From positions 1 to 43,010 of the forward strand of contig JACNGX010000021.1 of the NCBI GenBank assembly GCA_014383885.1: a DNA stretch of 43,010 nt. The letters run 5' to 3'. The translations under genes were made by a program, and so were the position numbers. The notes beneath the pieces were generated by a model that made no database searches, was not told the origin of the DNA, and worked only from the letters and a program-made list of their open reading frames with translations. The DNA is from Parcubacteria group bacterium (GTDB lineage Bacteria > Patescibacteriota > Minisyncoccia > Phycocordibacterales > JACNGX01). This document shows, piece by piece, positions 1 through 42,184 of this stretch (positions are counted from its first letter, which is position 1; the number at the start of each line of letters is the position of its first letter).

Positions 1-1516
1 GGGCAGCATTGGGTATAGCGGTGGGTGTGCGACGGACGGTGACGCCGCCATTGTCGGTAGTAAAGGTCTGCAGTGAGCCGTATGTTGTTACTTTCTCGTT
101 ATCGGCAACACAACGGAAGTAGTAGGTTGTACGCGCATCAAGACCGGAAATAATTTTATCCACTCGTTCGCTACGATCATCACCATCAACATACTGCTTA
201 TAGGTATCGTCGTTCATCGAGGTCGTTTCACCATATTCAAACCACACATCGGTGTCTGAATCATTTGGATCAACATCACAACGCAAACGCGCGGAATCTT
301 CAGTGATATCGGTGGCCGAAAGTGTTTCCACACGAGGGCGATCACCTTCTGGCTCATCATCATCGGTAGTGAAAGTCTTCGTATCACCATAGGTCTTTCC
401 TTCATCGTTTTCCGCGACACAGCGGAAATAATATTTCTCGTCTTCGTCGAGACCGGTCACGGTACGCTCGTATTCATTGTCATCATCATCGATGGTGCGC
501 TTCGAGGTATCTTCGTCCATACCGGAATCCTCGCCATACTCAAACCAGATTTCCGCTTCATCAGCATTGATGTCCACGTCACAACGGAGCGTTGCTGAAT
601 CTTCATCGATATCCTGAGCAGACAATGTCTCTACATCAGGGCGGTCATCTGCACCACCATTATCATCAGTATACAACGTCTTCGTATCACCATACGTTTT
701 TCCTTCATCGTTTTCAGCGACACAACGGAAGTAATATTTCGTGTCTTCATCAAGACCGGAAATACTGCGACTCACGCGCTCTTCATCATCGCCATCACCA
801 ATAGAACGCTTCGAGGTGTCTTCATCCATACTGGAATCTTCACCGTATTCAAACCACACATCAGTGTCGTCGTTGTTCGGATTTACATCACAGCGAAGTG
901 TCGCGGAATCCTCGTCAATATTGATTGCCGAAAGTGTGTCCACGTCGGGACGATCGGCATCATCATCACATCCGCCGTTGTCGCACGGATCATAACACCC
1001 ATCACAACCGCACGGATCATAGTAACAAGAATCGTAATAGTAGTAATCTTCGTAAACGTACGTGGTGTCTTCGTAGTAGTAGTCGTCATACCCATATCCG
1101 TAGTCGTACCCCCAATCGTCGTAATAATCGTACGAGTCGTATCCGTAATCGTAACCATAGTCGTAATCGTAGTACCCATACGAATCATATCCCCAATCAT
1201 AATCATATGTAGTGTTGTAGTAATTAGAATCATCGTAATACCCCCAGTCATCCCCATAGTCGTAATACCCATCATGGTCATAGTAATAATCATCGTAGTA
1301 GTAATCATACGAATCATATCCATAACTATCGTCATCATAGTAATAGTCGTCGTAATAATAATCATACGAGTCGTATCCGTAGTCGCTGTAATAGTCGGCA
1401 TGCGCGACCTGAGGGAGGACAACGGGCGAAAGCACACTTACCACAAGGGCAAACACAGTCACAAGTGCCATACCTGTGCGAAGTGCAGTATTGTGTTGAA
1501 TAGTTGAAAATGTCAT
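1..1516 (-). CDS. Secreted protein, partial (C-terminus runs off the window at position 1). It has a signal peptide, a Tyr/Asp/Gly-rich low-complexity region of about 150 aa, a Cys-rich linker, and three tandem FN3-like repeats of about 100 aa.
   Basis: Manual translation of the minus strand from the ATG (complement of 1514-1516): MTFSTIQHNTALRTGMALVTVFALVVSVLSPVVLPQVAHA, then DYYSDYGYDSYDYYYDDYYY..., then CYYDPCGCDGCYDPCDNGGCDDD. Three repeats follow of the form DRPDVxTLSAxDIxEDSAxLRCDVxxNxDxTDVWFEYGE...GLDEDxKYYFRCVAENDEGKTYGDTKT, which matches the FN3 pattern (W in strand B, GL..T.YYFRV.A.N in strand F). The DNA period is about 300 bp (approximately 80-360, 360-640 and 640-960). The frame is open to the window edge. 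The ORF track omits it because it is incomplete. Confidence 0.7.
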   Translation of the reverse strand, partial: MTFSTIQHNTALRTGMALVTVFALVVSVLSPVVLPQVAHADYYSDYGYDSYDYYYDDYYYDDDSYGYDSYDYYYDDYYYDHDGYYDYGDDWGYYDDSNYYNTTYDYDWGYDSYGYYDYDYGYDYGYDSYDYYDDWGYDYGYGYDDYYYEDTTYVYEDYYYYDSCYYDPCGCDGCYDPCDNGGCDDDADRPDVDTLSAINIDEDSATLRCDVNPNNDDTDVWFEYGEDSSMDEDTSKRSIGDGDDEERVSRSISGLDEDTKYYFRCVAENDEGKTYGDTKTLYTDDNGGADDRPDVETLSAQDIDEDSATLRCDVDINADEAEIWFEYGEDSGMDEDTSKRTIDDDDNEYERTVTGLDEDEKYYFRCVAENDEGKTYGDTKTFTTDDDEPEGDRPRVETLSATDITEDSARLRCDVDPNDSDTDVWFEYGETTSMNDDTYKQYVDGDDRSERVDKIISGLDARTTYYFRCVADNEKVTTYGSLQTFTTDNGGVTVRRTPTAIPNAA

Positions 1517-1582
1517 AAAGATAAAAATATAAACGAATAAAGATTGGCGCCCGTTTCCGCGCGCATGACCTTTTATAGTATA

Positions 1583-1610
1583 ATTATACACTAAACAGAT
1601 ATTTTGTCAA
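1583..1610 (-). promoter_or_regulatory. Sigma70-type promoter for the FN3-repeat gene: TTGACA-N16-TATAAT on the minus strand.
   Basis: The reverse complement of 1583-1610 reads TTGACAaaatatctgtttagtgTATAAT, about 70 nt upstream of the ATG at 1516. Confidence 0.55.
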
Positions 1611-1748
1611 TACCCCTCTGGAGAACTCATATTCTCCCTTATACCTACCATACTGGGATAGCTTTGTCAACACATCGAAACTATTAAGTATAGAAAATAC
1701 AGTAACACCAATAATGAGCGCTTCTCCCCGAATATTCATCATTAGAAT

Positions 1749-1796
1749 CTTTTTGCTGTAAAAAAGTGCCGAAAGATTTGGGAAATCTTTCGGCAC
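1749..1796 (-). terminator. Intrinsic terminator for the 1806-2597 gene.
   Basis: Perfect 14-bp stem GTGCCGAAAGATTT/AAATCTTTCGGCAC (1766-1796) with a 3-nt loop, followed on the minus strand by TTTTTTACAGCAAAAAG. Confidence 0.6.
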
Positions 1797-1805
1797 TACA
1801 ATCCG

Positions 1806-2597
1806 TCACCTCATGCGCAGAGGTGGGGGGCGTCGCACGATCCGCCGTGGAGGCGGTGCCTGACGATACCTCCTCTGCGGAGGAGGACATGGTCGCACCA
1901 CTCTCCTCCGCGGAGGCGGGCAATACCGCTTCGCTCTCGGCTGCGGACGGCGGTACTCCCTCCTCTGCGGAGGAGGTGCTGGACGGCGGTACTCGCGACG
2001 TTCGGTGTGTACGATTTCTCGTACGACCGTCCTGATGATGGCACCGGCAACGACCCTGCCTACGTCGCTCTGGTGTCCGCGATACTCGTCGCGGCGCGGC
2101 TTGTACACCGCTTTCCGCTGAGTCTGTGGAAGTGGCAGCAACATGACGTTGCCACACTCCGCAACGAGGAGTGTGTATACCACCACCCCCCTGTCGGTTT
2201 GGAGACGGAGAAGAGACCCTATCAGGTCCTTCCCCGTCCGGTTTACATACGGCCCATCAGGGAGAAACCCTCCTCCCTTCTGGTTAATCGTAAGGAACGG
2301 CTCACCGCTCCTCACGACCGTGCCGTGCCGCTGCCCGCGCGGCATATTCGCCACGCGGTTAAATTCCTCCTCGAAGTTTACGGCGTAAATACCGTAAACT
2401 TCGAGAGAATTGCGAACAAGCTCCTTGTATAGAGCTTGTTCGTTACTCTCCACGGCGGCATACACGCCGCCGGGATAAAGTGGATTCGCGCCGATGCGCG
2501 AATACTCCCTCGCCCCGAACAATTCGGGCGAACGAGCAAGTCCGTCCGCACTCATCGCAAACAACGCAACGAGCAGAAAAATAAACAATTTTTTCAT
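1806..2597 (-). CDS. Secreted hypothetical protein with a Pro/Arg-rich C-terminal tail.
   Basis: 263-aa ORF with an SD GGAGGGGG about 9 nt upstream of the ATG (complement of 2595-2597). Signal peptide MKKLFIFLLVALFAMSADGLA. The tail reads RREYRRPAPPPQRREYRRPQPRAKRYCPPPRRRVVRPCPPPQRRYRQAPPPRR. The gene has its own promoter and terminator. Confidence 0.55.
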   Translation of the reverse strand: MKKLFIFLLVALFAMSADGLARSPELFGAREYSRIGANPLYPGGVYAAVESNEQALYKELVRNSLEVYGIYAVNFEEEFNRVANMPRGQRHGTVVRSGEPFLTINQKGGGFLPDGPYVNRTGKDLIGSLLRLQTDRGVVVYTLLVAECGNVMLLPLPQTQRKAVYKPRRDEYRGHQSDVGRVVAGAIIRTVVREIVHTERREYRRPAPPPQRREYRRPQPRAKRYCPPPRRRVVRPCPPPQRRYRQAPPPRRIVRRPPPLRMR

Positions 2598-2673
2598 TGT
2601 TAAGCCCCCTCCTTGGGACCATACCTCTCAAAAAAAAGAGGCTTTTCAAGTTGCAATAATTTATCCTGCCACT

Positions 2674-2702
2674 ATTTTATACCAAAATATATGTTTTGTC
2701 AA
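2674..2702 (-). promoter_or_regulatory. Sigma70-type promoter: TTGACA-N17-TAAAAT on the minus strand.
   Basis: The reverse complement reads TATTGACAaaacatatattttggtaTAAAAT. It shares the extended motif TATTGACAAAA with the promoters at 1583-1610 and 26858-26886. Confidence 0.5.
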
Positions 2703-2749
2703 TACCCTGGTAGCTTATGGCTTATAGCTTTGAGCTTATAGGAAAGAAA

Positions 2750-2787
2750 GGGCGGCGACCGAAGGTCGCCGCCCTTTCTTTTTTTTG
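2750..2787 (+). terminator. Intrinsic terminator, bidirectional in form, with no obvious upstream plus-strand gene (see findings).
   Basis: GGGCGGCGACC gaa GGTCGCCGCCC followed by TTTCTTTTTTTT. It is preceded by AAAGAAAG, so the reverse orientation also carries a weaker U-tract. Confidence 0.55.
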
Positions 2788-2987
2788 CTCAAATACAATT
2801 ACAGCGAAGATTCCCATTCAAACCAGGAATGACAATACAGATTTACTTTCTAGTGCGCGCGCAGCACCTACCTACCGGCAGGTAGGCGCTCTTCTAAAAA
2901 CTCCCCTTTACTCCATCACCCTCAAACACTCACTTCTCTAAAAGCCATGAGCTATAAGCTAAAAGCTCGCTATGCTATACTATACTC

Positions 2988-4691
2988 ATGATTACCTTTC
3001 GCGACCCAAAGCAACAAGAACGCTACGAGGAGCTCCATAAACAAGAAGAAGAAGAATTGGTTCGTGTACTTTCAGCACGTTATGGTGTCTCTTCTGTCAC
3101 CCTTTCGTCCGCTACCGTCAACACCGATGCGCTGAAACTCGTTCCTGAGGAGGAAGCGCGAAAAGCCGGTGTTGCCCCGTTTTCTCTCCTTGGGAAAAAG
3201 GTAAAGGTGGCAGTTCTTTCTCCTCATACCAACGAAGTGAAAAGTATCGTGAAAGATCTTTCTCGTCGCGGATACGAGCCGGATATTGTCATGGTCTCTC
3301 ACAATAGTATCGAGCAGGCATGGGCATTGTATCCGGAAATTTCCCGTGCCGAGGAAACGGAAGCAGGTGTGTTTGATATTTCCGGAACTCAACTCGAATC
3401 CATATCGTCGGACATTGCCAAAATCAGCGACATTACCGCTACCGTCGGCTCAATCACCGAGGGGGGCTCACGCAATAAAGTGACACGCATCCTTGAAGCG
3501 CTTCTCGGTGGTGCTATTGCCATCGACGCATCTGATGTTCACTTTGAGCCGGAAGAAAGTGGTGCACGTGTACGTATTCGCGTCGATGGTGTGCTCGTCG
3601 ATACTGCTCGCTTGAATACTGATGTGTACGCATTCATTCTCTCTCGTGTCAAACTTCTATCCGGACTCAAGCTCAATGTGACAAAGAACTCACAAGATGG
3701 CCGTTTCAGTATCCGTCTCCATGACCGCAACATTGAAATTCGTGCGTCGGTTATTCCGGAAGAACACGGTGAATCAATCGTGCTCCGACTCCTTGACCCA
3801 ACATCGCTTGGGCTTGCCTTTGATGACCTTGGCATTGACCCGGCACTGTTTGATGTTATCAAGCGGGAAATCTCTCGCCCCAATGGACTCATTCTCACCA
3901 CCGGTCCGACCGGATCCGGTAAAACAACCAGTCTCTACGCATTTTTGAAACACGTCCATCGCTCGGAAGTAAAAATCATCACAATTGAAAATCCGATTGA
4001 ATATCATCTCGATGGCATCACCCAAACACAAACCAACACCAAAGAAGGGTACACCTTCGCCCAAGGACTTAAAACCGCGCTTCGCCAAGACCCGGATGTG
4101 ATCATGGTTGGTGAGATTCGTGATAGCGATACAGCGCAAACGGCACTGAACGCCGCCTTCACCGGTCACCTCGTCTTCTCCACACTCCACACCAATAATG
4201 CCGCCGGTGTGATTCCGCGTTTGGTGAATCTCGGTGTAAACCCCAAGCTCATTTCCTCGGGCTTGAATCTTTCGCTTGCACAGCGTTTGGTACGCCGTGT
4301 CTGTCCTCACTGTCGTCGCCCGTATGAGCCCACAGAGGAAGAAAAAACACTCATGGAAGGTATTATTGAGCGTTTTAATACAAAACGTGGCACCAGGGAA
4401 ACCCTTGGAGGACATACTCTCTATGAGGCACATACTGCCGTAGATAATACATGTGCCGAATGTGGTGGGCTCGGGTATAAAGGGCGTATCGGTGTGTATG
4501 AAGGTATTCTCACCGACGAATCTACCGAGCGTGTTGTTCTCTCTGACATGCTCACCGAACGAGAGATTCGCAAGGCGTCCAAAGAACAAGGAATCCCTAC
4601 CATGGCCGAGGACGGCATTGTGAATAAAGTCCTTCAAGGTTTGACCTCACTTTCGGAGCTTCGTCGAGTTGTGGACTTGGATGAATCGTGA
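2988..4691 (+). CDS. pilB: Type IV pilus / type II secretion assembly ATPase (GspE/PilB family).
   Basis: 567 aa. Walker A is GPTGSGKTT, Walker B is DPDVIMVGEIRD, and there is a tetracysteine motif CPHC...CAEC. The N-terminal region is a GSPII_E N-domain-like segment. Confidence 0.9.
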   Translation: MITFRDPKQQERYEELHKQEEEELVRVLSARYGVSSVTLSSATVNTDALKLVPEEEARKAGVAPFSLLGKKVKVAVLSPHTNEVKSIVKDLSRRGYEPDIVMVSHNSIEQAWALYPEISRAEETEAGVFDISGTQLESISSDIAKISDITATVGSITEGGSRNKVTRILEALLGGAIAIDASDVHFEPEESGARVRIRVDGVLVDTARLNTDVYAFILSRVKLLSGLKLNVTKNSQDGRFSIRLHDRNIEIRASVIPEEHGESIVLRLLDPTSLGLAFDDLGIDPALFDVIKREISRPNGLILTTGPTGSGKTTSLYAFLKHVHRSEVKIITIENPIEYHLDGITQTQTNTKEGYTFAQGLKTALRQDPDVIMVGEIRDSDTAQTALNAAFTGHLVFSTLHTNNAAGVIPRLVNLGVNPKLISSGLNLSLAQRLVRRVCPHCRRPYEPTEEEKTLMEGIIERFNTKRGTRETLGGHTLYEAHTAVDNTCAECGGLGYKGRIGVYEGILTDESTERVVLSDMLTEREIRKASKEQGIPTMAEDGIVNKVLQGLTSLSELRRVVDLDES

Positions 4692-4706
4692 GAATATACA
4701 AGGAGG

Positions 4707-4737
4707 TACGAAGTACGAACCCCTACGAACATACGAA
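4707..4737 (+). repeat. Full 31-nt tetra-hexamer motif TACGAA-g-TACGAA-cccc-TACGAA-ca-TACGAA.
   Basis: Read directly from the sequence. It begins 16 nt after the pilB stop codon. Confidence 0.8.
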
Positions 4738-4820
4738 TCTTGTTTCTTGAAAGAAAATTACTGTTATTCTGAATCAATTCCAGACTAACAGCAAAAGTGA
4801 GTGGTGAAGCAAAAGTCATG

Positions 4821-12123: not shown

Positions 12124-13224
12124 TTACCGGTTCATCGGCATCACAAGTGAGAGAAATGATTGATCACCAACTGACTCAATAATGAGTGGTTTATTTTCTC
12201 CTGCAAATGACACAGACACACTATCTCCTGAAAGTGAAGGGAAACTATCGGTAATGTATTTGTAATTCACATTAATAGTAATTAGTTCACCTGATAGTGA
12301 TGCTTGTAATGGTACTCGACTTTCTCCTACATCCGTATTTTTTGTTTCGATGATGTATGTCTTTTCTTTTGGATTCAGTGACATGGTTACTTGTTTAAAT
12401 GTGTTGGAAAACACTATACTCACCTTAAATGCATCGGTGAAATCTTTTTTAAGTACAATAGCAGTTGTTGAATATTCTTTTGGTATAATTTGGCGATAAT
12501 CAGGGAATGACCCATCAATAATGCGGGAAGTCACATACACACCCTCTTTCTCAAAGACAATCTGATGATCATTGAATCGAATATCCACATCCCCACTTAA
12601 TTGCTCGAATATTCTAATAATTTCCAAAGTGTTTTTATGAGGGATAAGTATTCCACCCCAATCATTCACATTTTTATGAGGTATTTTCTTTTCTGCTAAT
12701 CGAAACGAATCAGTTGCAACAAATACCAACATATCATGTTCAGGATACATATACACACTTCCAAGTTCAGGTTTTACATCTGAAAGCGATGAGCTATACA
12801 CCACGCTTTTTAATCCCTCAACAAGTTTTTTTACCGGAAGAGAAAAACTTGTCCCTTGATCAACAACAGGTAGTGAAGGAAATTCTTCCGGAGAAAGGCA
12901 TTTAATAAGTGTATTATTTCCTTGTATTGAAATGGTGAGATTTCCTTCTTTCTCCTCAACTTCAAGAGTACCGTCTCCTGAAATACCTGAAAGAAAACCA
13001 CTGAATACAGATGCTGGCACTGCAACAATACCATCACGATCACTTTTTACTGGAAGCTCTATTTCAACACCAATATCAAGATTGGTTGCGCGAATCATCA
13101 TACGCTTTCCTGAAACCTCAAGAATGATTGATGAGAGAATAGGGAGTGAGAGATTTTTCCCTGTTATTTTCTCCACAAGAGAAATTGTTTCGGAAAGAAG
13201 TTTTTTTGGACATGAACATTTCAT
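12124..13224 (-). CDS. dnaN: DNA polymerase III beta sliding clamp.
   Basis: 366 aa with a three-domain clamp-like organisation. Located immediately downstream of dnaA. Confidence 0.9.
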   Translation of the reverse strand: MKCSCPKKLLSETISLVEKITGKNLSLPILSSIILEVSGKRMMIRATNLDIGVEIELPVKSDRDGIVAVPASVFSGFLSGISGDGTLEVEEKEGNLTISIQGNNTLIKCLSPEEFPSLPVVDQGTSFSLPVKKLVEGLKSVVYSSSLSDVKPELGSVYMYPEHDMLVFVATDSFRLAEKKIPHKNVNDWGGILIPHKNTLEIIRIFEQLSGDVDIRFNDHQIVFEKEGVYVTSRIIDGSFPDYRQIIPKEYSTTAIVLKKDFTDAFKVSIVFSNTFKQVTMSLNPKEKTYIIETKNTDVGESRVPLQASLSGELITINVNYKYITDSFPSLSGDSVSVSFAGENKPLIIESVGDQSFLSLVMPMNR

Positions 13225-13485
13225 ATATGATTATCCCCAAGGGTGTTTTGTATATTATTAAATAAAATTATTATTATTATAAGTACAGTGGAAAAGTGGA
13301 AAGATGAAAATCTTTATACATAGTAAGGATTGAATAGGAATATGTGATGTGTATAAGAATAGTGTATAAAGCAGAAAAGTTTTTATTTGTGTATAAATAA
13401 CAATATCTATTTTCTTTTCCACATACTATTATATGTTTGTACACATAAATCTCCATAGATATTTCCAGATAGTTACCCACATGTT
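13225..13485. other. Candidate oriC region in the dnaA-dnaN intergenic spacer (AT-rich, with DnaA-box-like 9-mers).
   Basis: Five one-mismatch DnaA boxes: 13231-13239 TTATCCcCA, 13348-13356 TGTGtATAA, 13388-13396 TGTGtATAA, 13425-13433 TTtTCCACA, 13473-13481 TTAcCCACA. AT-rich tract at 13251-13290. Confidence 0.55.
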
Positions 13486-14817
13486 TTACACTAGTGATCG
13501 AATTTTTTCCACTTCACTCCGAAGAGTATCATCATCATTTAAATCTCTTTTCATTTTATCACACGAATGCATAACTGTTGTATGATCTCTTCCACCCAGG
13601 TTTTTTCCGATCATTGGGTAAGAAGCACTATAATCCTCTCGTAGGATATACATAACAATTTGTCGTGGCTTCACAATTTCTTTTCGTCTTGTTTTTTCAT
13701 AAATATCTTTTTCAGGAATATCATAGAAGCCAGCCACTATCTTTACTACATCTTTCACAGAGATATTTTTCTTTGGTTTTTCTGTGTTTTTAATAATTCG
13801 TTTTACTTCATTAAGTGTGAGTCCTTTCTCCCCTACTGATGCATGACACATAAGAGTGTTGATAGCTCCTTCAAGTTCTCGGATATTTCCTTCAATAGAA
13901 AGGGCAAGATAATCAATAACATCTTCCGGAACCTCAATACCTCGTGAACGGAGTTTGAGGGTGATAATTGAGCTACGAGCCTCATATTCAGGTTGGTTAA
14001 TATCTACAATCATACCGGCACTAAAACGGGATTTTAGACGCGATTCAAGACCAGGAATGAAGTTGGGGTGCACATCGGATGAGAATATGATCTGCTTATT
14101 GCTATCATAGAGAGCATTAAAGACGTGAAAGAGCTCTTCTTGGGTTTTTTCTTTATTAGAAAGAAATTGAATATCATCCATAATGAGTGTATCAAAGTTA
14201 CGATACTTTTCTTTGAAGACATTTGTTGTGTCATTTTGAAGAGAAGAAATATAGTCAACAAGAAATTTTTCCGATGTGATGTAGAGTACCCGCTTCTTCA
14301 AATCTTTTTTCAAGTGATTACCCACTGACTGGATAAGATGTGTCTTTCCAACTCCCGTTCCTCCGTACACAAAAAGTGGGTTATAGGTAGTGCCTGGATT
14401 TTTGAGAATCGCTTGCGCTGCTGCGTATGCGAGATTATTAAATGATCCAACAATAAAAGAATCAAATGTATAGCGTGGGTTGAGATTACTCTCCTTATCT
14501 ACATATACATCAGCGAGTGGAAGTTCCCCTGCTTTATATTTCTGATTTTTTCTCTCTTCTTCTTTTGGTGCTTTGGCAATAATGTATTCAAGTCCACGTA
14601 CACCGTCGGAGAGTTCACGTAATGATTTCAGAATCATGGTGTGGAATTTTTGAGATAACCACTCTTTCACAAATTCATTCGGCACAGCGACAAACACTGT
14701 TCCTTCATCTTGTTTCGAGATGTATGTATTTCGAAACCATGTACTGAAATTCGCTCGCGAGATTTGCGATTCCACTTCACTAAGTACACTATTCCAGAGT
14801 TGTGAGTTGTCTACCAT
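13486..14817 (-). CDS. dnaA: Chromosomal replication initiator DnaA.
   Basis: AAA+ Walker A GGTGVGKTHL and a C-terminal DNA-binding domain (...TTVMHSCDKM...). The conserved N-terminus MVDNSQLWNSVLSEV suggests the start at 14817 rather than the ORF-track start at 15003. Confidence 0.9.
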   Translation of the reverse strand: MVDNSQLWNSVLSEVESQISRANFSTWFRNTYISKQDEGTVFVAVPNEFVKEWLSQKFHTMILKSLRELSDGVRGLEYIIAKAPKEEERKNQKYKAGELPLADVYVDKESNLNPRYTFDSFIVGSFNNLAYAAAQAILKNPGTTYNPLFVYGGTGVGKTHLIQSVGNHLKKDLKKRVLYITSEKFLVDYISSLQNDTTNVFKEKYRNFDTLIMDDIQFLSNKEKTQEELFHVFNALYDSNKQIIFSSDVHPNFIPGLESRLKSRFSAGMIVDINQPEYEARSSIITLKLRSRGIEVPEDVIDYLALSIEGNIRELEGAINTLMCHASVGEKGLTLNEVKRIIKNTEKPKKNISVKDVVKIVAGFYDIPEKDIYEKTRRKEIVKPRQIVMYILREDYSASYPMIGKNLGGRDHTTVMHSCDKMKRDLNDDDTLRSEVEKIRSLV

Positions 14818-14905
14818 AGAAAGAAAAAAGAATGACGACGAATAAGGTTTGTCTATTATAGTATGAGTGGACACTATGGGGAAACTTGCAAACATTGGAA
14901 AACTC

Positions 14906-14925
14906 TGTTGATAACATGTGGATAA
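14906..14925. promoter_or_regulatory. Tandem DnaA boxes upstream of dnaA: TGTtGATAA-ca-TGTGGATAA (the second is a perfect consensus).
   Basis: Read directly. They lie about 90 nt upstream of dnaA on its coding strand and immediately adjacent to the TACGAA array. Confidence 0.6.
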
Positions 14926-14930
14926 TAAAT

Positions 14931-14961
14931 TACGAATTACGAATCGCGCGAATATACGAAT
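14931..14961 (+). repeat. Full 31-nt motif with a degenerate third unit: TACGAA-t-TACGAA-tcgc-GCGAAT-at-TACGAA.
   Basis: Same 7/10/8 spacing as the other full copies. Confidence 0.75.
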
Positions 14962-15033
14962 ACAACTTTTGTTACAGTACTCAATTTTGTTGTCATCCCG
15001 CACTTAATGTGGGATCTATTTGAGTTTATTACT

Positions 15034-17560: not shown

Positions 17561-18862
17561 TCAGTAATTCACAGTCTCAAATGCATCGGCAACGCGAAGA
17601 ATCCATGGTGTCATATCGCGTTTGTTAGTGAAGAGGAGAAAAGATTCATCTTCACTGAGAACAGGGTTGATGAGATCAATAGCTGTATCATACATATTCG
17701 GATCAACAAGGAAAAAGCCGATAGACTCTTCGGTGTCATAATACCAGATGCTGTCTTCAAAGAATAGTTCTCCTTTGTACCATGTGTCGGGGTATCGTGT
17801 GAAAGGAAGAGAAAATGGTACACCACAGTAGATTCCCTTCCCTTCTGCATCCCAGGTGCATTTCTCAGGAAGTGTATCAAAGAGAAGTGCAGTTTCTTCT
17901 CCATCGGAGAGGATTTTCAGTGTGAGTGTGTTTTCCGAACTTTCAGAGAAAAGTATTTTTGTGCCATCAGGACTTGTGAGCGTGGTAAGACCGCTAACAC
18001 CACTTAAGATTGGATTGAGCGTATTTGAGAAGAGAGAAAGATAATAGCTGTATCCTGGAATTCCCGCTGCAGGCTTTGTGGTGAGATAAATGTAGTCGTT
18101 TTCCGCCCAATCGATAAGCCACTCGGAAAGGGGCGAGGAAAATGCTTCTTTTGGTTCCTCACCGGAAAATGGTACGATAATACCGCGAGAGCCGCTTGTT
18201 GTACGTTCAAGGAGAAAAAGAGAGTCTTGAGTGGGGTTGGTGTCGAAAGCAAGGGTACCAGTGCGGAGGAACTCTGCTCGAGCAAGTCCAATATCACCGC
18301 CCTCTTCTTCCGCTGTGAAAATCGAAATTCCGGTTCCCTCAATAATATCATCGTCATTGAGTGTACGCGCAAAGAATTCCGTGCCGTCAGTATTCCAAAG
18401 CGTGTCATGGATGTGTGGTATGGTTGTATTGGTGATGCGTTCTGCCCCAAGTGTGTCTACAGGGATATCAAAAATATTTCCCGTTGCCTTTTCTATCACA
18501 CGGACAATGAGGATATTCTTTTCTTCCTCGGACCCTTCTGTTGATTGAGGGAGTGTTATAAACGTTGCCCCCGATACGGGCTCAGGGAATACTTGCGAAA
18601 TGAGATCGACGCTCAGTTGTTTTTCGTCGTCCTGTGGTGTTTTGTCAGGAGAGTCTCCATCTCTCTCTTCACTACCAAAGAGGGAGTCGAGCACACCCTC
18701 ACCTTCTGCGCCACTAAAGAGAAAACCAAAGAAGCCATTATCTCCCACCCCCTCAGAAGAGTTGCCACCGCGACCAAAGAGAAATATTCCAACACCAAGG
18801 AGAACGATGAGGAGAATAGTACCTCCCCAGATGAATATGCGTTTTTGCTGAGAACTATTCAT
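17561..18862 (-). CDS. Membrane-anchored hypothetical protein (N-terminal TM, an acidic linker, and a large extracytoplasmic domain).
   Basis: 433-aa ORF. N-terminus IFIWGGTILLIVLLGVGIFLF. First gene of the minus-strand block that contains the T4SS genes. Confidence 0.6.
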   Translation of the reverse strand: MNSSQQKRIFIWGGTILLIVLLGVGIFLFGRGGNSSEGVGDNGFFGFLFSGAEGEGVLDSLFGSEERDGDSPDKTPQDDEKQLSVDLISQVFPEPVSGATFITLPQSTEGSEEEKNILIVRVIEKATGNIFDIPVDTLGAERITNTTIPHIHDTLWNTDGTEFFARTLNDDDIIEGTGISIFTAEEEGGDIGLARAEFLRTGTLAFDTNPTQDSLFLLERTTSGSRGIIVPFSGEEPKEAFSSPLSEWLIDWAENDYIYLTTKPAAGIPGYSYYLSLFSNTLNPILSGVSGLTTLTSPDGTKILFSESSENTLTLKILSDGEETALLFDTLPEKCTWDAEGKGIYCGVPFSLPFTRYPDTWYKGELFFEDSIWYYDTEESIGFFLVDPNMYDTAIDLINPVLSEDESFLLFTNKRDMTPWILRVADAFETVNY

Positions 18863-19910: not shown

Positions 19911-21776
19911 TTATACCACGCCAGCGATACGGGAGAGTGGATTATCCGGCGTTTCATTCTCACTGCTTTCTTTAAGTGCTTTCTTTGCTTCACGAATCTG
20001 GAGTATTTGTGAGGGGTCCGAGGTAATGATTTGTTCTTCAGTGTAAGAAGCGAGGATTTTAATGGCGACATGCTTGAGTCCTGCAAAGAAGATACCTTCT
20101 CCTACATCGGATTCGAGAAGTAAGAATTTTTCCTCCTCAGTGAGGTTGAATGTTTTTTGGACGGTGTCGATGGCTGTGGGCGATTGTTTCAAGAGAAGCT
20201 GAATTGAAGAGTTGGTGATGATCGGTAAACCATACGGCGACCGGAGGAAATCGGACACGTCTTGGGTGATGGTGGCGACTCCTAGATAGTATTTTCTACC
20301 GCGCTTTGTCATGCCGAAGAGAAATGATGCCGTATCTTCGGATTTCATCATCCACCACGCCTCGTCGATCACAAGAAGGCGTTTTTTCAGCTCGCGACGA
20401 ACGGCATTCCAGATAAAGTGGGTAATGATGTGCATGGCGACGGTTTTAAGTTCGTCTTCCATGTCGCGAACGGAGAAGACCACAAACTTTTTGTTGATAT
20501 TTATGTTGGTTGGACGGTTAATGAATTCCGCCCACGTTCCTTTCGTATATTTTGAAAGACGACTTAAGAGAGATTCCCCCCCTTCCATGCCGGAGAGGAC
20601 CATTTCAAAGTCGGAAAGAAGTGGTGGGACAATTTGTGAGAGATCTGAATCAGGAGTGATGTCTTTGAGTGCATATGTTTCCGTGATAGCACGGTCAATA
20701 ATGGAGTCTTCTTCAGGGGAAAGACCGCCAAGCATGATGCGGAAAAGACCGACGAGTGAAATGGTATTTGCACGGAGGACGTCAGCAGTTGTCTCATCTT
20801 CGCTCGGCATAGGAAGATCGAACGGATTGATATGGTGTGGGGAGCTGAGTGAAATATTGAAATGGCGACCACCTGTAGCCTCTGCCATAAATTCATATTC
20901 ACGTTCAGGGTCAATTACGATTACTTCCGTATCAAACATGAGAGTACGGAGAATTTCAAGCTTGGTGGAGAAGGACTTTCCGGCGCCAGAAGTGGCAAAA
21001 ATGACGGAATTATAGTTTTCCATTGAGAAGCGATCGAAAAGAACAAGACTGTAATTGTGTCGATTGATGCCATAGAGAATGCCGCGGTCGGATGTGAGGT
21101 TGAAGGAAATAAAAGGAAATATGCTTGAAAGCGGTGAAGAATTGAGTTTTGAGTGAATGCCGAGCGAGTCGGATCCGGAAGGAATGACGCTTTTGAACGC
21201 GTCTTCTTGCTGAAAAAGACTTGGCTTGAGATAGACAAGCTTTGATTCAAGAATTGATTTGATTTCCGATTCAATACGATCAAGTTCTTCTTCTGTTTTT
21301 CCGTAGACGGTGATATAGAGACCAACGTCAAAGAGACGCTCTTGCGCCTGTTGAAGCTGATCGCGGAGGTTTTCAAGATTGGCATATGCGGCAGCAAGCT
21401 TCGGGTCACGCACCATGCCACGCTCCTCACGCATCATGATTTGGCTTTCAACCTCAGCAACTTTCTTTTGGAATTTGCGCAAAATAGCCGCGGTGTCCAC
21501 CGGGTGAATATGGATGGAGACGTCGAAGACAGCGTCGAGATTCACAATCGGCGAGAACCAGCTGTCGGCGAGATAACGTGGGTAGGAGATGACGAAGAAT
21601 GTGCGAGCGATACGGTCGCCTAAATTGAGTTCGCGCGGAGTGATTTTGAGCGCCGAAGGAGCGATGACATCTTTTAATTCCAATACTGCCGATTCATATA
21701 TTTCATGTGGTAATACAGGCACCGCCTCCGGGGTGTCTTTTTTCTTCCCTATTCCTAATGTGTTAAGAAGTGACAT
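19911..21776 (-). CDS. virB4: VirB4/TraE/PrgJ-type conjugative T4SS ATPase (core portion).
   Basis: Walker A FATSGAGKSF, Walker B LVIDEAWWMM, and the Gram-positive VirB4 N-terminal signature LGDRIARTFFVISYPRYLADSWFSPIVNLDAVFDVSIHIHPVD. First ATG at 21776. The frame remains open up to 21839. Confidence 0.85.
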   Translation of the reverse strand: MSLLNTLGIGKKKDTPEAVPVLPHEIYESAVLELKDVIAPSALKITPRELNLGDRIARTFFVISYPRYLADSWFSPIVNLDAVFDVSIHIHPVDTAAILRKFQKKVAEVESQIMMREERGMVRDPKLAAAYANLENLRDQLQQAQERLFDVGLYITVYGKTEEELDRIESEIKSILESKLVYLKPSLFQQEDAFKSVIPSGSDSLGIHSKLNSSPLSSIFPFISFNLTSDRGILYGINRHNYSLVLFDRFSMENYNSVIFATSGAGKSFSTKLEILRTLMFDTEVIVIDPEREYEFMAEATGGRHFNISLSSPHHINPFDLPMPSEDETTADVLRANTISLVGLFRIMLGGLSPEEDSIIDRAITETYALKDITPDSDLSQIVPPLLSDFEMVLSGMEGGESLLSRLSKYTKGTWAEFINRPTNININKKFVVFSVRDMEDELKTVAMHIITHFIWNAVRRELKKRLLVIDEAWWMMKSEDTASFLFGMTKRGRKYYLGVATITQDVSDFLRSPYGLPIITNSSIQLLLKQSPTAIDTVQKTFNLTEEEKFLLLESDVGEGIFFAGLKHVAIKILASYTEEQIITSDPSQILQIREAKKALKESSENETPDNPLSRIAGVV

Positions 21777-21780
21777 AGTG

Positions 21781-22431
21781 TTATAGTTGAATCGGCTTAT
21801 CAAGTTCGCCGGGATTAAATATGCGGTAAAAAAGTTCAATCAATTCTTCCGTACCCAGAGGCGATGTGCGGATACCGGTACGGACAAGTCCTTGTTGTAC
21901 GACATAGGCACGCTGTTCAAGCTGGGAGCGATTTACTTCAAATTCATCCTGCTCTTTATCCTCCCCTCTCGAGCGCTTTTTCTTCGTTCCTAAAACATCG
22001 CCAAGAATGCCTGTGTCGGTTGCAATGAACGAAGGGGTGTATGGGACGACGATGAAAAAGTTCTTTGACATGATATTAGTCTGTTCGGTAAATGTTTTAA
22101 TGAAGCGAATGTATTCGCGAATCTGTACTTTTGAGAGGTCGTTTATCTGCTCTTTTTCGCGCCGTTCGAGAAGCGCGACATAGGGGCGAACGTCATATCG
22201 TCGAGATTGGATGTAGATTTGTACCGAGAAGTCAAGCGAGTTGAGAAAGTTTTGAAATTGAATGAGAATAGATTGCTGTTCGTCGGGAGACTTAAGCGAC
22301 ATATTCACCGATGATGTCATGAGTACCATCTTGAGCGAACCGTCTTCCATCACCGCCACACCGTCTCGTACCTCTTTGATAGGCACGAATCGTTGTGATG
22401 CTTGTGATTTTTCTTTGTTTGATGTTGGCAT
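21781..22431 (-). CDS. VirB4 N-terminal-extension-like protein. It is a separate ORF; VirB4 may be split or frameshifted here.
   Basis: FVPIKEVRDGVAVMEDGSLKMVLMTSSVNMSLKSPDEQQSILIQFQNFLNSLDFSVQIYIQS resembles the N-terminal extension of long Gram-positive VirB4 proteins. Its stop codon lies 4 nt from the virB4 ATG. The two frames overlap across the A6 run at 21828-21833. Confidence 0.55.
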   Translation of the reverse strand: MPTSNKEKSQASQRFVPIKEVRDGVAVMEDGSLKMVLMTSSVNMSLKSPDEQQSILIQFQNFLNSLDFSVQIYIQSRRYDVRPYVALLERREKEQINDLSKVQIREYIRFIKTFTEQTNIMSKNFFIVVPYTPSFIATDTGILGDVLGTKKKRSRGEDKEQDEFEVNRSQLEQRAYVVQQGLVRTGIRTSPLGTEELIELFYRIFNPGELDKPIQL

Positions 22432-26978: not shown

Positions 26979-28466
26979 CTATTCTTCAGCGTCTCCTTGT
27001 TGTGTGCCAAGATGCTGCAGAATTACTTGTACGTTGTTGTATGTTTCGTTGATACGACCGACAACGTTCTCGACATCAGACTTTGTTTGAAGAGCGAGAG
27101 CGCGGGAATAGGTGTCGATTGGCTCGTGAAGATTATTGAAGTTTGAATAGAGAGGAATGATCTCGGATGGAGTGTCGGCACTGAGTGCTTGCGTGTGGAG
27201 AGATGTAAGCGAAGAGAAGTATGTATCGGTAATGTTGGATGTCTCAATGAGTGCTTGAACGGATGAGAGATCGTCGATTGAGTCTTCAATTTCACGCTGG
27301 AGAGAGGTGAGCCCTGTGCGGGTAATGATTACGACATCACCGGAATCAACAATGACTGATATACCGCGATCGTCCATATAATCAAGAATATCATCGATTT
27401 CGGAAATAGTGAGTGTGCCTGTGGTGATACCCTCCTGCACCATTTCACCAAGAGTGAGTACGTCATCTGAAAGAGCAAGTTCCGCTTCGATAATGTCGAT
27501 AAGCTCTTGATCTACACCAACAACTTGCTGAAATCCGCCACCACTCCCCGATCCGGATGAGCCACCGCCTGCAAGCGATGAGATGCCGTCGGAAATAAGG
27601 CTCATGACGAGATTTTGAATCATACTTGCCAGGAATTCCTCGATTTCATCGGCGTTTTCAAGACTTTCAAGAGGACTGCCAAGCGCATCGGAAAGTGTGT
27701 TCGTGATGAATTGCCCGGGAGTGAGACGTTCCCAGCGAGCACAGCCATCGTCGGCGTTGACGACACCATCGAGATTTTTATCGACACCGACCGACTCAAG
27801 GCATTTTCCGGGAAGAGAGAGGAGCCCGCCGCTTTGCTCAAGCTCAGACTTAACATTCCCAAGAGCATTTTCAACCTGGCGAGCGTGTTCTTCGGCTGCC
27901 ATGAACCCTTGACCGATAGCGCTGTTTTCCGGCATGACAGTGTGAGCAAGAAAACCTGTCCAACCACCACCTTCAAAAAAGCCGTCCTCGAACGCATCAG
28001 GATTGATAAGGATATCTTCAAGAGAACTCTTGGCATATTCTGAATATGGCGTGTAGCTTTGCGAGAGAAGCTTGAGGATCTCGGTTTTAATTGGCCCGTA
28101 AATATCCGCATTGCTTACTTCGCTCATGAATGCCGTGGTCACATCGCGTGAGAGTTTGGCGAAGAAGGCGTCGGGGTCGGTGATGAGAAGCTCATCGCCG
28201 AAAAAGCCCGAATTGATGAAAGAGCGAAGGTCGCCAATAATATCTCCCACGAGCATTTTAGCGACTTTCCATGCGATGCCGTCGAGACCGAGCTCTTTGG
28301 GAAGAATGGTTCTGTCACGTGTAATGTCTTTGAGTACAATCACCGCATCACCTGCTCCGAAGAGTGCATGGGCGGGAGCCGGACGTGCGATAATGCCACC
28401 AAACATAAAGAGTGGAACGAGGATGCCGAGTGTGAGTGTGCGAAGGTGTGAAAGGTGAAACGTCAT
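26979..28466 (-). CDS. Secreted hypothetical protein (495 aa).
   Basis: Signal peptide MTFHLSHLRTLTLGILVPLFMFGGIIARPAPAHA. Acidic. Contains a GGGSSGSGSGGG linker. Confidence 0.6.
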   Translation of the reverse strand: MTFHLSHLRTLTLGILVPLFMFGGIIARPAPAHALFGAGDAVIVLKDITRDRTILPKELGLDGIAWKVAKMLVGDIIGDLRSFINSGFFGDELLITDPDAFFAKLSRDVTTAFMSEVSNADIYGPIKTEILKLLSQSYTPYSEYAKSSLEDILINPDAFEDGFFEGGGWTGFLAHTVMPENSAIGQGFMAAEEHARQVENALGNVKSELEQSGGLLSLPGKCLESVGVDKNLDGVVNADDGCARWERLTPGQFITNTLSDALGSPLESLENADEIEEFLASMIQNLVMSLISDGISSLAGGGSSGSGSGGGFQQVVGVDQELIDIIEAELALSDDVLTLGEMVQEGITTGTLTISEIDDILDYMDDRGISVIVDSGDVVIITRTGLTSLQREIEDSIDDLSSVQALIETSNITDTYFSSLTSLHTQALSADTPSEIIPLYSNFNNLHEPIDTYSRALALQTKSDVENVVGRINETYNNVQVILQHLGTQQGDAEE

Positions 28467-28490: not shown

Positions 28491-29480
28491 CTAGAGGGCA
28501 AACATGCTACCTACCTCACTCTCTGAAAAGGTAAGTGAAGCATCGGATAAAATACCAACAAGCGACTGCGCCGCGTATTCCATGCGGGTAAGTGACGTTT
28601 GGTATGTGGTGAGTCCGGTGAGGCCGATGACGGTATCGTCGGACATGTCGTGAATGTAGGTGAGTGACATGGCCATCGTTTGAAGAGTGTTAAGGATTTC
28701 GAGATGAGTATCAATAAGAGTGGAAGGTACGGAAAGCGCAAAGAGTGCATCGTGCATGTCGGTAAAGAAGGTGATGAAGCGTTTCAAATCCGAGAGACGC
28801 GATAAATTGCCACTTTCGATTGCATCGGTAATAATAGCGACTTCATAGGGAGCGCCCAGCTCATCGTAAGCGAGAATGAATGATGCAAGTGTGTTGGCGT
28901 ATGTGCGCAGGAGCGTGGAGCTTTCGGTAATAGTGTCAACAACAATATCTTCTTCCGTGTAAGTGTTTTGAGGAATATTTTGAGCGACTTCATTACTGAT
29001 GATGTCTTCAAGAACAGAAATGTCTTCAATCGTTGGATTTCCTTCGGTGCCGATGTGATACAAATGACTCATAAACGTACGAGAGACAGCGTCGGAGCGC
29101 GTACTCCCTCCTTCCCCCGCGGCTTCATCTGAGGGAACAATGGGATATGCCTCAAGTGTGTCGTCAACGGCGTTTACAAGCGGATTACGACGCGCGGCGA
29201 TTTCAATACCGTCTCCGGTGCCGTCGCCGTCGGAATCGGCGACATTTGGATTGGTTCCCCAGAGAGCTTCTTCCCAATTAGAAAGACCGTCTAAATCGGT
29301 GTCTTCCGTGCCAAGTGAGATTTTCTCTCGTTCTTCATCAGTGATGACAAGAAGTGGCTCGGTGTCGATCGGTCTTTCTTTCGGACGAGTAAATGAATAC
29401 ACAGCTATACCGATAACAGCAATGAGAGCGACGGCAAGCACAAAGCGACTACTGGGGAGATAGTGAGTGATATGTTGCAT
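28491..29480 (-). CDS. Membrane-anchored hypothetical protein with a thrombospondin-type-3-like calcium-binding Asp repeat.
   Basis: N-terminal TM helix FVLAVALIAVIGIAVYSF and the repeat DTDLDGLSNWEEALWGTNPNVADSDGDGTGDG. Confidence 0.55.
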   Translation of the reverse strand: MQHITHYLPSSRFVLAVALIAVIGIAVYSFTRPKERPIDTEPLLVITDEEREKISLGTEDTDLDGLSNWEEALWGTNPNVADSDGDGTGDGIEIAARRNPLVNAVDDTLEAYPIVPSDEAAGEGGSTRSDAVSRTFMSHLYHIGTEGNPTIEDISVLEDIISNEVAQNIPQNTYTEEDIVVDTITESSTLLRTYANTLASFILAYDELGAPYEVAIITDAIESGNLSRLSDLKRFITFFTDMHDALFALSVPSTLIDTHLEILNTLQTMAMSLTYIHDMSDDTVIGLTGLTTYQTSLTRMEYAAQSLVGILSDASLTFSESEVGSMFAL

Positions 29481-40903: not shown

Positions 40904-41164
40904 CGCTCTATTGATAGAAACGGATGAATTGACGCGCCCGAAGCATATACTCACCGAACCGACCCAAAACGGCTTCGTTGAGCCATATAATTCGGATTCC
41001 GAACGACAGACACTCCCTCGGAATAGCTTGAAAACCCTTGAAATACGGCATATTACGCTTGTATGAAGAGGACGGAAGAGCTCTTTCCCTTACGGCTTAT
41101 CATACCCTCAATACAAGATCCTGACAGTTTTCTCGTTATTGCAAGTCAGGTGAATATACTGTAT

Positions 41165-42184
41165 ATGCGACGCTCCGCAGCGTTTCGTGCGGCGACTATT
41201 GTCGTGTCTCTCTCTATTCCGCTCTTTACCCATGCGGGAGTATTCTCTTTTGTTGAAGGGCTCCTTGGAAGTGAAGAAAAGACGGAAACAACTGTTTTTT
41301 CTGAAGAAAACTCTCAAACCATGGCGCTTCTTTCTCCTGCTCTTCATTCCGACCCGAATCCCGCCAAAGGTGGTGGCGATATTACACTCGTGGATGGTAC
41401 AGCGCTTTTGCCGGAGGCGGGTCCTTCAGGTACGCTTGCCGATATTGAAGAAATTTCTCTCACGTCCGATCATATTTCTCTCTATGTGGTACGCCCGGGC
41501 GACTCACTTTCCCAGATTGCAGAGATGTTTACTGTGTCGCCGAGTACCATTAAATGGGCAAATGACATTTCTTCAAGTGATGTGATTGTGCCGGGCGATA
41601 CGTTGGTTATTTTGCCGATTTCCGGTATTCGCCACACGGTGAAGAGTGGTGATACTGTGGGAAGCATTGCAAAGAAGTATGGAGGCGACATTGATGAGAT
41701 TCTTGAATACAATGCCCTTGAAAGCACGTCGCTTGCTGTGGGTGATGTTCTTGTTATCCCTGACGGAGAAATGGGAACCCCTGCCGGAACATCTTCATAT
41801 TCTCGCCCCGCGACACCGTCGTACTCTTCCGTTGTCTCATCCGGATACTACATGCGTCCGATTTCTGGTGGGTATCGTTCGCAGGGGTTGCACGGATACA
41901 ATGCCATTGACCTCGCTGCGCCAATTGGCACGCCGATGTACGCGTCGGCATCTGGTGACGTGATTCTTTCTCGCAGCGGTGGGTGGAATGGTGGATATGG
42001 AAGTTATATCGTGATTCGACATCCAAACGGCACACAAACACTCTATGCGCACAATTCTCAAAATATTGTGTCTGCCGGGCAACACGTGGTACAAGGACAA
42101 GTGATTGGATATGTTGGCTCCACTGGACGTTCTACCGGACCCCACATTCACTTTGAAATCCGCGGTGCGGTGAATCCATTTTAA
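41165..42184 (+). CDS. Secreted cell-wall hydrolase with two LysM domains and an M23 peptidase domain.
   Basis: Signal peptide MRRSAAFRAATIVVSLSIPLFTHA with an AGGTGA SD upstream. Two LysM motifs (YVVRPGDSLSQIAEMF..., HTVKSGDTVGSIAKKYG...). The C-terminal M23 motif is HxxxD...HIHFEI. Confidence 0.85.
   Translation: MRRSAAFRAATIVVSLSIPLFTHAGVFSFVEGLLGSEEKTETTVFSEENSQTMALLSPALHSDPNPAKGGGDITLVDGTALLPEAGPSGTLADIEEISLTSDHISLYVVRPGDSLSQIAEMFTVSPSTIKWANDISSSDVIVPGDTLVILPISGIRHTVKSGDTVGSIAKKYGGDIDEILEYNALESTSLAVGDVLVIPDGEMGTPAGTSSYSRPATPSYSSVVSSGYYMRPISGGYRSQGLHGYNAIDLAAPIGTPMYASASGDVILSRSGGWNGGYGSYIVIRHPNGTQTLYAHNSQNIVSAGQHVVQGQVIGYVGSTGRSTGPHIHFEIRGAVNPF

Follow-up and report, generated by a model that had tools for sequence, protein, structure and literature searches.

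In fibrillar adhesins, the CLIPPER domain is a CnaA-like element of the stalk and is able to carry an isopeptide bond between Lys and Asn (PMC12617251). Cultivated Patescibacteria (candidate phyla radiation, CPR) are attached to other microbes, and the basis of this contact is little known apart from type IV pili (10.1101/2024.11.25.624915, PMC13059738). Surface proteins with fibronectin type III (FN3) domains are considered host-contact candidates in these bacteria (PMC13059738). Here, we analyzed a gene at the left end of contig JACNGX010000021.1 (assembly GCA_014383885.1) from a Parcubacteria group bacterium; the whole stretch of 43,010 nucleotides is called the window below. The gene lies on the minus strand (1..1516), where codons 1-505 of 813 are present as a partial coding sequence, and it encodes a surface protein with a Tyr/Asp-rich N-terminal tip on an FN3 stalk. 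Judged from its sequence, it would be a concrete and probably highly expressed candidate for CPR contact.

We propose, with a probability of roughly 45%, that the tip is a multivalent, low-specificity contact surface for attachment to a host cell, a glycan or a particle. In this arrangement, the protein would be exported by Sec, its signal peptide would be removed after Ala40, and a single C-terminal transmembrane (TM) helix with a short cytoplasmic tail would tether it, with the rest exposed on the cell surface. From the membrane outward, the stalk would consist of one DUF11/CLIPPER (CnaA-like) domain and then four FN3 domains, of which the outer three would be extremely acidic with one Cys pair apiece. 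Its length is estimated at roughly 20 nm. The far end would be formed by a small Cys-stapled junction and a disordered tip of about 125 residues (44% Tyr, 29% Asp). The Tyr side chains would bind the partner surface through stacking, hydrogen bonds and CH-pi contacts, and Asp (Ser/Thr in less acidic relatives) would keep the tip chain soluble and extended.

Full-length protein and membrane anchor

The original prediction, made from the letters of the window alone, described a secreted protein whose C-terminus lies beyond the window. On rechecking, the frame from the ATG at 1516 to base 1 (minus strand) contains 505 codons with no stop or frameshift, and its product is identical to the NCBI partial hypothetical protein H8D63_00795 (P0001). 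The gene is indeed cut by the contig end. We recovered the rest from a 6,960-bp Logan contig (L001), which was found through the neighbouring 263-aa protein and carries the complete 813-codon gene (L001:3339-5780). Window positions 96-4800 are 100% identical to L001; the mismatches are confined to the divergent contig end (1..95, minus), where 24 of 95 nt differ. The last ~32 codons read in the window (…DNEKVTTYGSLQTFTTDNGGVTVRRTPTAIPNAA) are accordingly unlike the full-length copy. This end is probably a strain variant or a mis-joined read path where the assembly broke.

After the third acidic FN3 domain, L001 encodes a fourth FN3 domain (non-acidic and without Cys), a Pro-rich linker, a DUF11/CLIPPER domain, the hydrophobic helix FFPTTFVGWLLLTILLLILVVLIRTIV and a 28-residue tail. 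The DUF11/CLIPPER domain, at residues ~621-729 and beyond the window, matched PF01345 with 48.2 bits (cutoff 24.6; E 1.6e-12), PF24346 with 34.4 (27) and TIGR01451 with 26.6 (24). The AlphaFold2 (AF2) model of the full-length family member P0003 contains an N-terminal helix, four FN3 domains, a confident beta-sandwich at residues 596-721 and a helix at residues 750-788. Candidate residues for a Lys-Asn isopeptide with a catalytic Asp are conserved in 13 family members, K614 and D658 without exception and N715 almost so, and their spacing is akin to that of the triad K715/D748/N806 in 9IFR. A search of PDB sequences with the CLIPPER-domain profile gave chance-level matches only, and 9IFR was not aligned.

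The sortase anchor model TIGR01167 did not match the protein, and FFPTTF opens the TM helix instead of LPXTG. Because the full-length copy bears a C-terminal TM anchor, the protein is a type I membrane-anchored surface protein and is not released. Thus, the export part of the term "secreted" stands, and the release part does not. In tipped and untipped orthologues alike, a juxtamembrane motif, GxGF[FL]P[TD][TS]Lx[GE]W, runs directly into the TM helix (L001, P0002-P0016, L171, L194, L149, L139, L140, L153, L181 and L185). As a separate observation, this motif looks like a sorting signal; no NCBIfam anchor model matched it.

Signal peptide and composition of the tip

The N-terminus looks like a Sec-type signal. 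It comprises residues 1-40 (1397..1516, minus), with an AF2 helix at residues 6-29 and predicted cleavage after VAHA, where the A-H-A site immediately precedes D41. The -3/-1 rule for signal peptidase cleavage is well established. An AxA directly before a Tyr-rich mature end was found in four of six aligned tipped homologues (A-H-A, A-Y-A, A-H-A and A-R-A); in P0003 and P0004, a stretch of ~25 residues that is not Tyr-rich comes after the signal. The type IV prepilin N_methyl motif (PF07963) was not matched, and the predicted cleavage site is of the signal peptidase I type (AxA).

The tip is a low-complexity region defined by composition at residues 41-163 (123 aa; 1028..1396, minus). Among residues 41-166, Tyr occurs 56 times, Asp 36, Gly 12, Ser 8 and Trp 3 times, and these five amino acids make up 91% of the stretch, which agrees with the initial description of the mature N-terminus. 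There is no Lys or Arg and one aliphatic residue, and the net charge is -38. The codons are mixed (TAC 32/TAT 24, GAT 20/GAC 16), and Tandem Repeats Finder reported only a 12-nt, three-copy micro-array inside the tip DNA. Because each of the two residues is encoded by both of its codons and the only array is this small one, the composition is maintained at the protein level. DNA slippage was considered as the origin of the tip and was ruled out by the same evenly mixed synonymous codons and 12-nt array.

The tip is predicted to be disordered. In two AF2 models it has a predicted local distance difference test score (pLDDT) <50 and no secondary structure; in one of the two, that of P0003, residues 29-173 are unmodelled at a pLDDT of ~30.

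Cysteine junction and constraint on the tip

The tip is followed by a Cys-rich junction at residues 164-187 (CYYDPCGCDGCYDPCDNGGCDDDA, 6 Cys; 956..1027, minus), for which AF2 confidence is low. The Cys-rich knot noted earlier after the Tyr/Asp region was located here, in the stretch CYYDPCGCDGCYDPCDNGGC at residues 164-183, which holds 6 Cys. In Tyr-tipped relatives the number of junction Cys is always even (2, 4, 6 or 8), and most of them have a CGCxGC core. The junction Cys are presumably bonded as disulfides.

We compared nine tips and found Tyr at 19-42%, Asp at 8-29% and 0-4 Lys+Arg residues. Where tip Asp declines, Ser, Thr and Asn substitute. Several Tyr-tipped relatives have 8-13% Asp with largely Ser/Thr instead, and Tyr is still 19-29% in them.

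Selection on the tip was estimated from a gapless in-frame stretch between L001 and L005, another copy of the locus. The proximal 25 tip codons showed 8 synonymous-only and no nonsynonymous differences, and the 21 junction codons showed 9 synonymous-only differences and 1 nonsynonymous codon difference (17 versus 1 combined). For the first FN3 domain, the ratio of nonsynonymous to synonymous substitution rates (dN/dS) was ~0.03, with dS saturated. The proximal tip and the junction are under strong purifying selection, with residue-by-residue conservation. The distal ~100 tip residues of L001 and L005 could not be aligned, and the distal tip of P0004 is instead similar to that of P0003. The tip looks like a mosaic, with a conserved base that bears a variable distal part.

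FN3 modules and acidity of the stalk

Three FN3-like modules of about 101-103 aa follow the junction, each assigned by Pfam, AF2 and Foldseek. They lie at residues 188-290 (647..955, minus; charge -21), residues 291-391 (344..646, minus; charge -28) and residues 392-492 (41..343, minus; charge -12), and the ~18 last codons of module 3 overlap the divergent contig end. The modules passed the curated Pfam cutoffs for fn3 (32 bits, cutoff 25), PhoD_N (45.9, cutoff 30), Pur_ac_phosph_N (45.9, cutoff 30) and Ig_3 (42.6, cutoff 30). AF2, run with a 33-sequence alignment, gave three beta-sandwiches with mean pLDDT of 81-96 over 10-residue blocks. The top Foldseek match in the PDB was human fibronectin FN3 10-12 (6xay; E 4e-13, probability 1.0), and FN3 domains of RPTP-mu and Dscam were likewise among the top matches (probability 1.0). 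Titin and NCAM FN3 domains were matched in the PDB sequence search. These results confirm the predicted Ig/FN3-like nature of the modules. The Ig_3 and ig matches are explained by the conserved Cys pair (LRC...FRC) in each acidic module, and this pair probably forms a cross-sheet disulfide.

The original prediction also regarded the modules as near-identical DNA repeats with a 300-bp period, and took this as a sign of recent duplication or concerted evolution. Our comparison did not bear this out. The pairwise identities are 70%, 66% and 61% for DNA and 72%, 63% and 54% for protein, and the best internal matches by blastn and extension are 71-74%. Tandem Repeats Finder found no 300-bp array. 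Recent duplication of the three FN3 modules of this gene was therefore rejected, and concerted evolution is unsupported at a DNA identity of 61-70%.

The acidity of tip and stalk could point to a role in cation or mineral binding, in which Ca2+/Mg2+ or a hard metal, for example Fe3+, would be chelated by Asp carboxylates and Tyr phenolates. Binding would make the stalk rigid, form bridges to anionic surfaces or fix the cell onto mineral particles. Tyr together with Asp is a classical set of ligands for Fe(III), and many Ig-domain stalks of bacterial adhesins become rigid with Ca2+. The charge of the tip, -38 over 126 residues, the charges of the three modules, the Asp-rich linkers between the FN3 domains and the Ca-binding TSP3 repeat of a neighbouring acidic exported protein all fit this explanation. 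However, Asp is reduced to 8-13% in several Tyr-tipped relatives, and orthologous stalks have ~4% Asp+Glu, which argues that acidity tracks lineage and not the tip. Metal-binding families were also undetected in profile searches of the protein. We regard cation binding as an improbable primary role.

Gene family and conserved locus

A whole-protein search gave 343 homologues, and those with a named source are mostly from the Parcubacteria group (Yonath-, Colwell-, Harrison- and Pacebacteria). A Tyr-rich N-terminal region was present in 7 of 120 among the matches listed, and four additional Tyr-tipped members came from metagenomes (L128-L131). The gene has a common position in L001, L002 (from a Tara sample, presumably marine), L003/L004 (Candidatus Yonathbacteria) and L005. 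The genes are arranged as PBP1, tyrS, ruvC, yebC, ruvB, a divergent pilB-like ATPase, an exported protein of 263-314 aa, the gene and tsaE, with polA beyond tsaE wherever the locus extends far enough.

Many other members keep the pilB and/or tsaE flanks with different N-termini. In L171, L194, L149, L139, L153 and L185 there is no tip, and the first FN3 domain comes straight after the signal peptide. A globular N-domain is present in L140 and L181 at the pilB/tsaE locus, and P0006 and P0010 are likewise globular. The six untipped orthologues, L140 and L181 contain ~4% Asp+Glu, compared with 27% in the protein studied here. Because same-locus orthologues share the C-terminal motif and differ N-terminally, the stalk with its anchor is a core surface protein that is conserved and inherited vertically, whose Tyr-rich tip and extreme acidity were added in a lineage-specific way.

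The number of FN3 domains differs among relatives. The total is 3 in P0004, 4 in this gene, P0003, P0008 and P0016, 5 in P0002 and L129, 6 in L128 and 7 in L130. In L128 (1620-4622), a module is 98.6% identical over 290 nt to module 1, and it is present as a single copy in the sister L129 (3773-6565). Repeat-number variation, which had been expected from the repeats of this gene, thus occurs among relatives, and its premise of near-identical DNA repeats fails here. As a side observation, the TM/tail region of L129 contains an exact duplication of 32 residues (PDTLLGWLIFTILLLIIIVLIRQLVLFYNEHK twice), possibly an assembly artefact.

A promoter with the sequence TTGACA, a 16-nt spacer and TATAAT lies upstream of the gene (1583..1610, minus; 12/12 consensus match, activity predicted). 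It is the sole perfect sigma-70 consensus across the 43-kb window, and shuffled sequences are expected to give 0.02. This agrees with the claim that the gene has one of the strongest promoters in the window, and the protein is predicted to be abundant. The interval between the -10 hexamer and the ATG corresponds to a putative 5' untranslated leader of ~60 nt (1517..1582, minus), in which no obvious Shine-Dalgarno sequence and no significant hairpin (z -1.6) were found. A terminator-like hairpin with a 15-bp stem and a T run (1765..1797, minus) closes the upstream gene, and the gene is therefore a separate transcription unit.

The conserved locus is also what a structural envelope protein might be expected to have. 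According to this explanation, the protein would be a housekeeping component of the surface layer, as an S-layer-like canopy or a polyanionic brush, in which tip and acidic FN3 domains form a hydrated negative coat for spacing, anti-fouling or salt adaptation and not for binding. The single-copy place in the core synteny PBP1-tyrS-ruvC-yebC-ruvB-pilB / gene / tsaE-polA in several lineages, the existence of untipped orthologues and the very strong consensus promoter speak for it. Other exported proteins of the window are also acidic (pI ~4.1), a close relative is from the Tara sample, and the non-acidic orthologues are from other metagenomes. Haloarchaeal S-layer glycoproteins, too, are acidic Ig-domain arrays with a C-terminal anchor. 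However, charge and hydration need neither 44% Tyr nor the persistence of Tyr once Asp is replaced, and the purifying selection that acts residue by residue in the proximal tip and the Cys junction would be left unexplained. SLH or other S-layer families were undetected in the profile searches. A coat is a rather unlikely explanation. The coat and contact-tip readings are compatible and not mutually exclusive.

The exported protein encoded immediately upstream (263 aa; window 1806-2597, minus) has a conserved core of ~140 aa and no Pfam or NCBIfam match. Its C-terminal tail is very basic and Arg/Pro-rich (+24), with PPPQRREYRRP-like repeats. Homologues occur only in syntenic loci (L001-L005 and L130) and are absent beside L050, a Tyr-tipped protein on a different stalk that is described below.

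These neighbours suggest that the protein could be a partner of the adjacent PilB-like ATPase (type IV pilus), or that its acidic tip could pair with the basic tail. Two arrangements adjoin family members, the divergent pilB in this clade and a full pilin/PilB/PilC cluster downstream in Colwellbacteria, and the basic-tailed protein keeps its place in the six loci just named. However, the other flanking genes are housekeeping genes, so that simple gene-order conservation may account for the synteny, and the pilin N-methylation motif was not detected in the protein. The strong terminator and the separate promoter divide the two neighbouring genes. Moreover, L050 has no such neighbour, and the upstream gene of the Colwellbacteria homologues is unrelated. 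Either partnership is very improbable.

Tyr/Asp tracts in other proteins

A composition-based search for other (DYY)n proteins had been suggested. With only the Tyr/Asp region as the protein query, 2027 word-sharing candidates were obtained, none with E <= 10, as the composition correction of HMMER strips the signal. We then scanned 185,579 species genomes at the DNA level for sequence encoding YYYDDYYY. Segments of this type were found in at least 120 other loci (L008-L127) across many phyla. By chance, about one match would be expected if the four bases were equally frequent, and no more than a few tens were all genomes 30% GC. The Tyr/Asp frame is open for >=100 codons in 108 of 120 among the matches listed. 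Among those with a complete 5' end, 88 of 107 have a signal-peptide-like start by a crude hydrophobicity rule.

The carriers are of several kinds. In Bacteroidota alpha-2-macroglobulins (~1,800 aa), the tract lies between MG2 and MG3 and is followed by a conserved ...NPCxxSYY. Others are small lipoprotein-like proteins of Prevotellaceae, proteins of Planctomycetota, Clostridia and Alphaproteobacteria, and proteins of Gracilibacteria, translated here with genetic code 25. Most tracts are short, and Cys is frequently found beside them. The 142-aa tract of this protein (>=60% Tyr+Asp) ranks second among the matches listed. The longest, of 166 aa, belongs to a 5'-truncated open reading frame (ORF) in a Candidatus Altiarchaeota metagenome-assembled genome (MAG; L052:2-623, minus). 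Its ~166 residues are nearly all Tyr, Asp, Asn and His with regularly spaced Cys (…YYDCYYDYYYYDYYYYDYDYNDY…), and it is more extreme than the window protein.

A further carrier comes from a Candidatus Paceibacterota MAG (L050:5985-7088, minus). This 367-aa protein has a signal peptide, a Tyr/Glu/Asp tip of ~100 aa and a CYSCGCSGGC junction. It also has two unrelated acidic beta-domains, for which Pfam gave no match, and a sortase anchor with the motif LPYTG (TIGR01167 above cutoff). Because L050 bears both tip and junction on another stalk, the two together behave as a module that occurs on different surface stalks. Like the untipped and globular orthologues, it marks the N-terminal position as a swap site.

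YYYDDYYY-like motif strings or descriptions of such tracts were not found in the searchable literature. Searches for Tyr/Asp-rich phrases returned teneurin YD-repeat papers only, and Parcubacteria combined with tyrosine-rich returned none. It is conceivable, if rather doubtful, that Tyr-dominated, Lys/Arg-free segments, in which Tyr is combined with Asp, Ser, Thr or Gly and Cys is often close by, constitute a widespread, undescribed class of extracytoplasmic "sticker" modules in bacteria and archaea, with this protein among its most extreme cases. It may also be the case with the clearest distal placement of the segment on a surface stalk, where a conserved core surface protein apparently gained it as a module. 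Possible modes of action are a minimalist binding surface akin to an antibody paratope, or self-association that is switched by cations and serves cell-cell attachment.

Function of the tip

Tyr and the absence of Lys/Arg persist among tips, and Asp is exchanged with Ser/Thr. This result suggests that Tyr would be the working residue and that the polar or acidic residues would be solubilising spacers. The variable distal part on a conserved Cys-stapled base points in the same direction. In minimalist synthetic antibody and FN3 libraries, Tyr-rich surfaces spaced by Ser, Asp and Gly suffice for tight recognition.

A surface adhesin was among the roles suggested at the outset. The adhesin-like design holds, since the protein is exported and has an FN3 stalk and a TM anchor, and the recognised adhesive domain that an adhesin might carry is lacking, as no Pfam or NCBIfam profile matched within residues 41-187. 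This lack is one of the points that weigh against a contact role. The low AF2 confidence of the tip comes from a shallow, poorly alignable multiple sequence alignment and falls short of proving disorder. The gene is a single-copy, syntenic and vertically inherited core gene, which fits a structural envelope role at least equally. In addition, the untipped orthologues presumably work without any tip.

The architecture is unsurprising, namely that of an ordinary Parcubacteria surface protein with FN3 and CLIPPER domains; the tip is unusual and apparently undescribed. If the tip is no more than a charged spacer, the protein is an ordinary one of the cell surface, if oddly composed. Follow-up is merited by how extreme the tip is, by its reuse as a module and by the wide spread of like tracts among secreted proteins; low-complexity regions of this sort are commonly masked and ignored. 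The same-locus orthologues without a tip, with a globular N-domain or with a Tyr-rich tip are a ready comparison set, with which the role of the tip is directly testable.

Other features of the window

The genes dnaN and dnaA (window 12124-15003) lie beside a stretch of 33-38% GC and the minimum of the cumulative GC skew. The GC minimum is at 12-15 kb, and yidC and a jag/KhpB-like gene are at 16.2-17.5 kb. This region, ~12 kb from the studied gene, looks like the chromosomal replication origin region. At 19911-21839 (minus), a VirB4/TraC/TraG-type P-loop ATPase is found amid several unannotatable membrane or exported ORFs; this group probably corresponds to the type IV secretion-like cluster that PMC12102498 describes for Patescibacteria.

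Three exported or membrane proteins (17561-18862, 26979-28466 and 28491-29480, all minus) have isoelectric points (pI) of ~4.1, and the last of them contains the bacterial TSP3 (Ca-binding) repeat mentioned above. Because the cytoplasmic proteins of the window have pI 5-9, acidity is limited to the exported proteins of this organism. A halophile-type proteome was considered as the cause of the acidity and was rejected on these values. A protein with the architecture LysM-LysM-Peptidase_M23, of the peptidoglycan hydrolase type, is encoded at 41063-42184 (plus) and could act on the wall of a host or on its own. A tRNA scan of the window found zero tRNA genes.

Comparison with known systems

Rhs and teneurin YD repeats share with the tip only the letters Y and D. 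Theirs are ordered beta-hairpins with a defined consensus, and the Pfam search gave no RHS_repeat match even with E <= 10 allowed. In staphylococcal Sdr/Clf proteins, the SD repeats are a wall-proximal spacer made of true DNA repeats. The protein studied here resembles these MSCRAMM proteins in its surface adhesin layout and its long acidic low-complexity region. However, its tract lies distally, is dominated by Tyr and is not encoded by DNA repeats.

Mussel foot proteins are Lys-rich, basic proteins with 10-15 mol% Tyr that depend on 3,4-dihydroxyphenylalanine (DOPA) (PMC4220933). Like the proposed tip, they are Tyr-rich, exported and of low complexity, and stand at the sticky end of a fibre. 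The tip differs in being acidic, Lys/Arg-free and 44% Tyr. No sign of DOPA chemistry was seen, and a Pfam scan of 20 other ORFs in the window found no Tyr-modifying, sortase or Dsb-type enzymes.

The anammox protein Brosi_A1236 is an abundant surface protein in which disordered segments of ~100 aa mediate self-adhesion, phase transitions and Ca2+-dependent assembly (PMC7482068). The likeness lies in a disordered segment of ~100 aa on a surface protein, where the disorder of the tip is predicted. The sequences are unrelated, and the disordered part of Brosi_A1236 is C-terminal.

Fibrillar adhesins have a signal peptide, a tandem Ig-like stalk with PF01345, a distal functional end and a C-terminal anchor (PMC12617251), and the protein shares this layout. 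However, it has one CLIPPER domain only, the rest of its stalk being FN3 domains, and a plain TM helix without LPXTG or a sorting signal. Its distal end is a low-complexity Tyr/Asp region and not a folded adhesive domain. With other Parcubacteria/Paceibacteria FN3 (PhoD_N-like) proteins, it shares the FN3 subtype (WFEYG...TxYYFR), the CLIPPER-like domain, the C-terminal motif and the locus. Compared with those orthologues, which are tipless or globular and ~4% Asp+Glu, it stands apart by its 123-aa Tyr/Asp tip and its 27% Asp+Glu.

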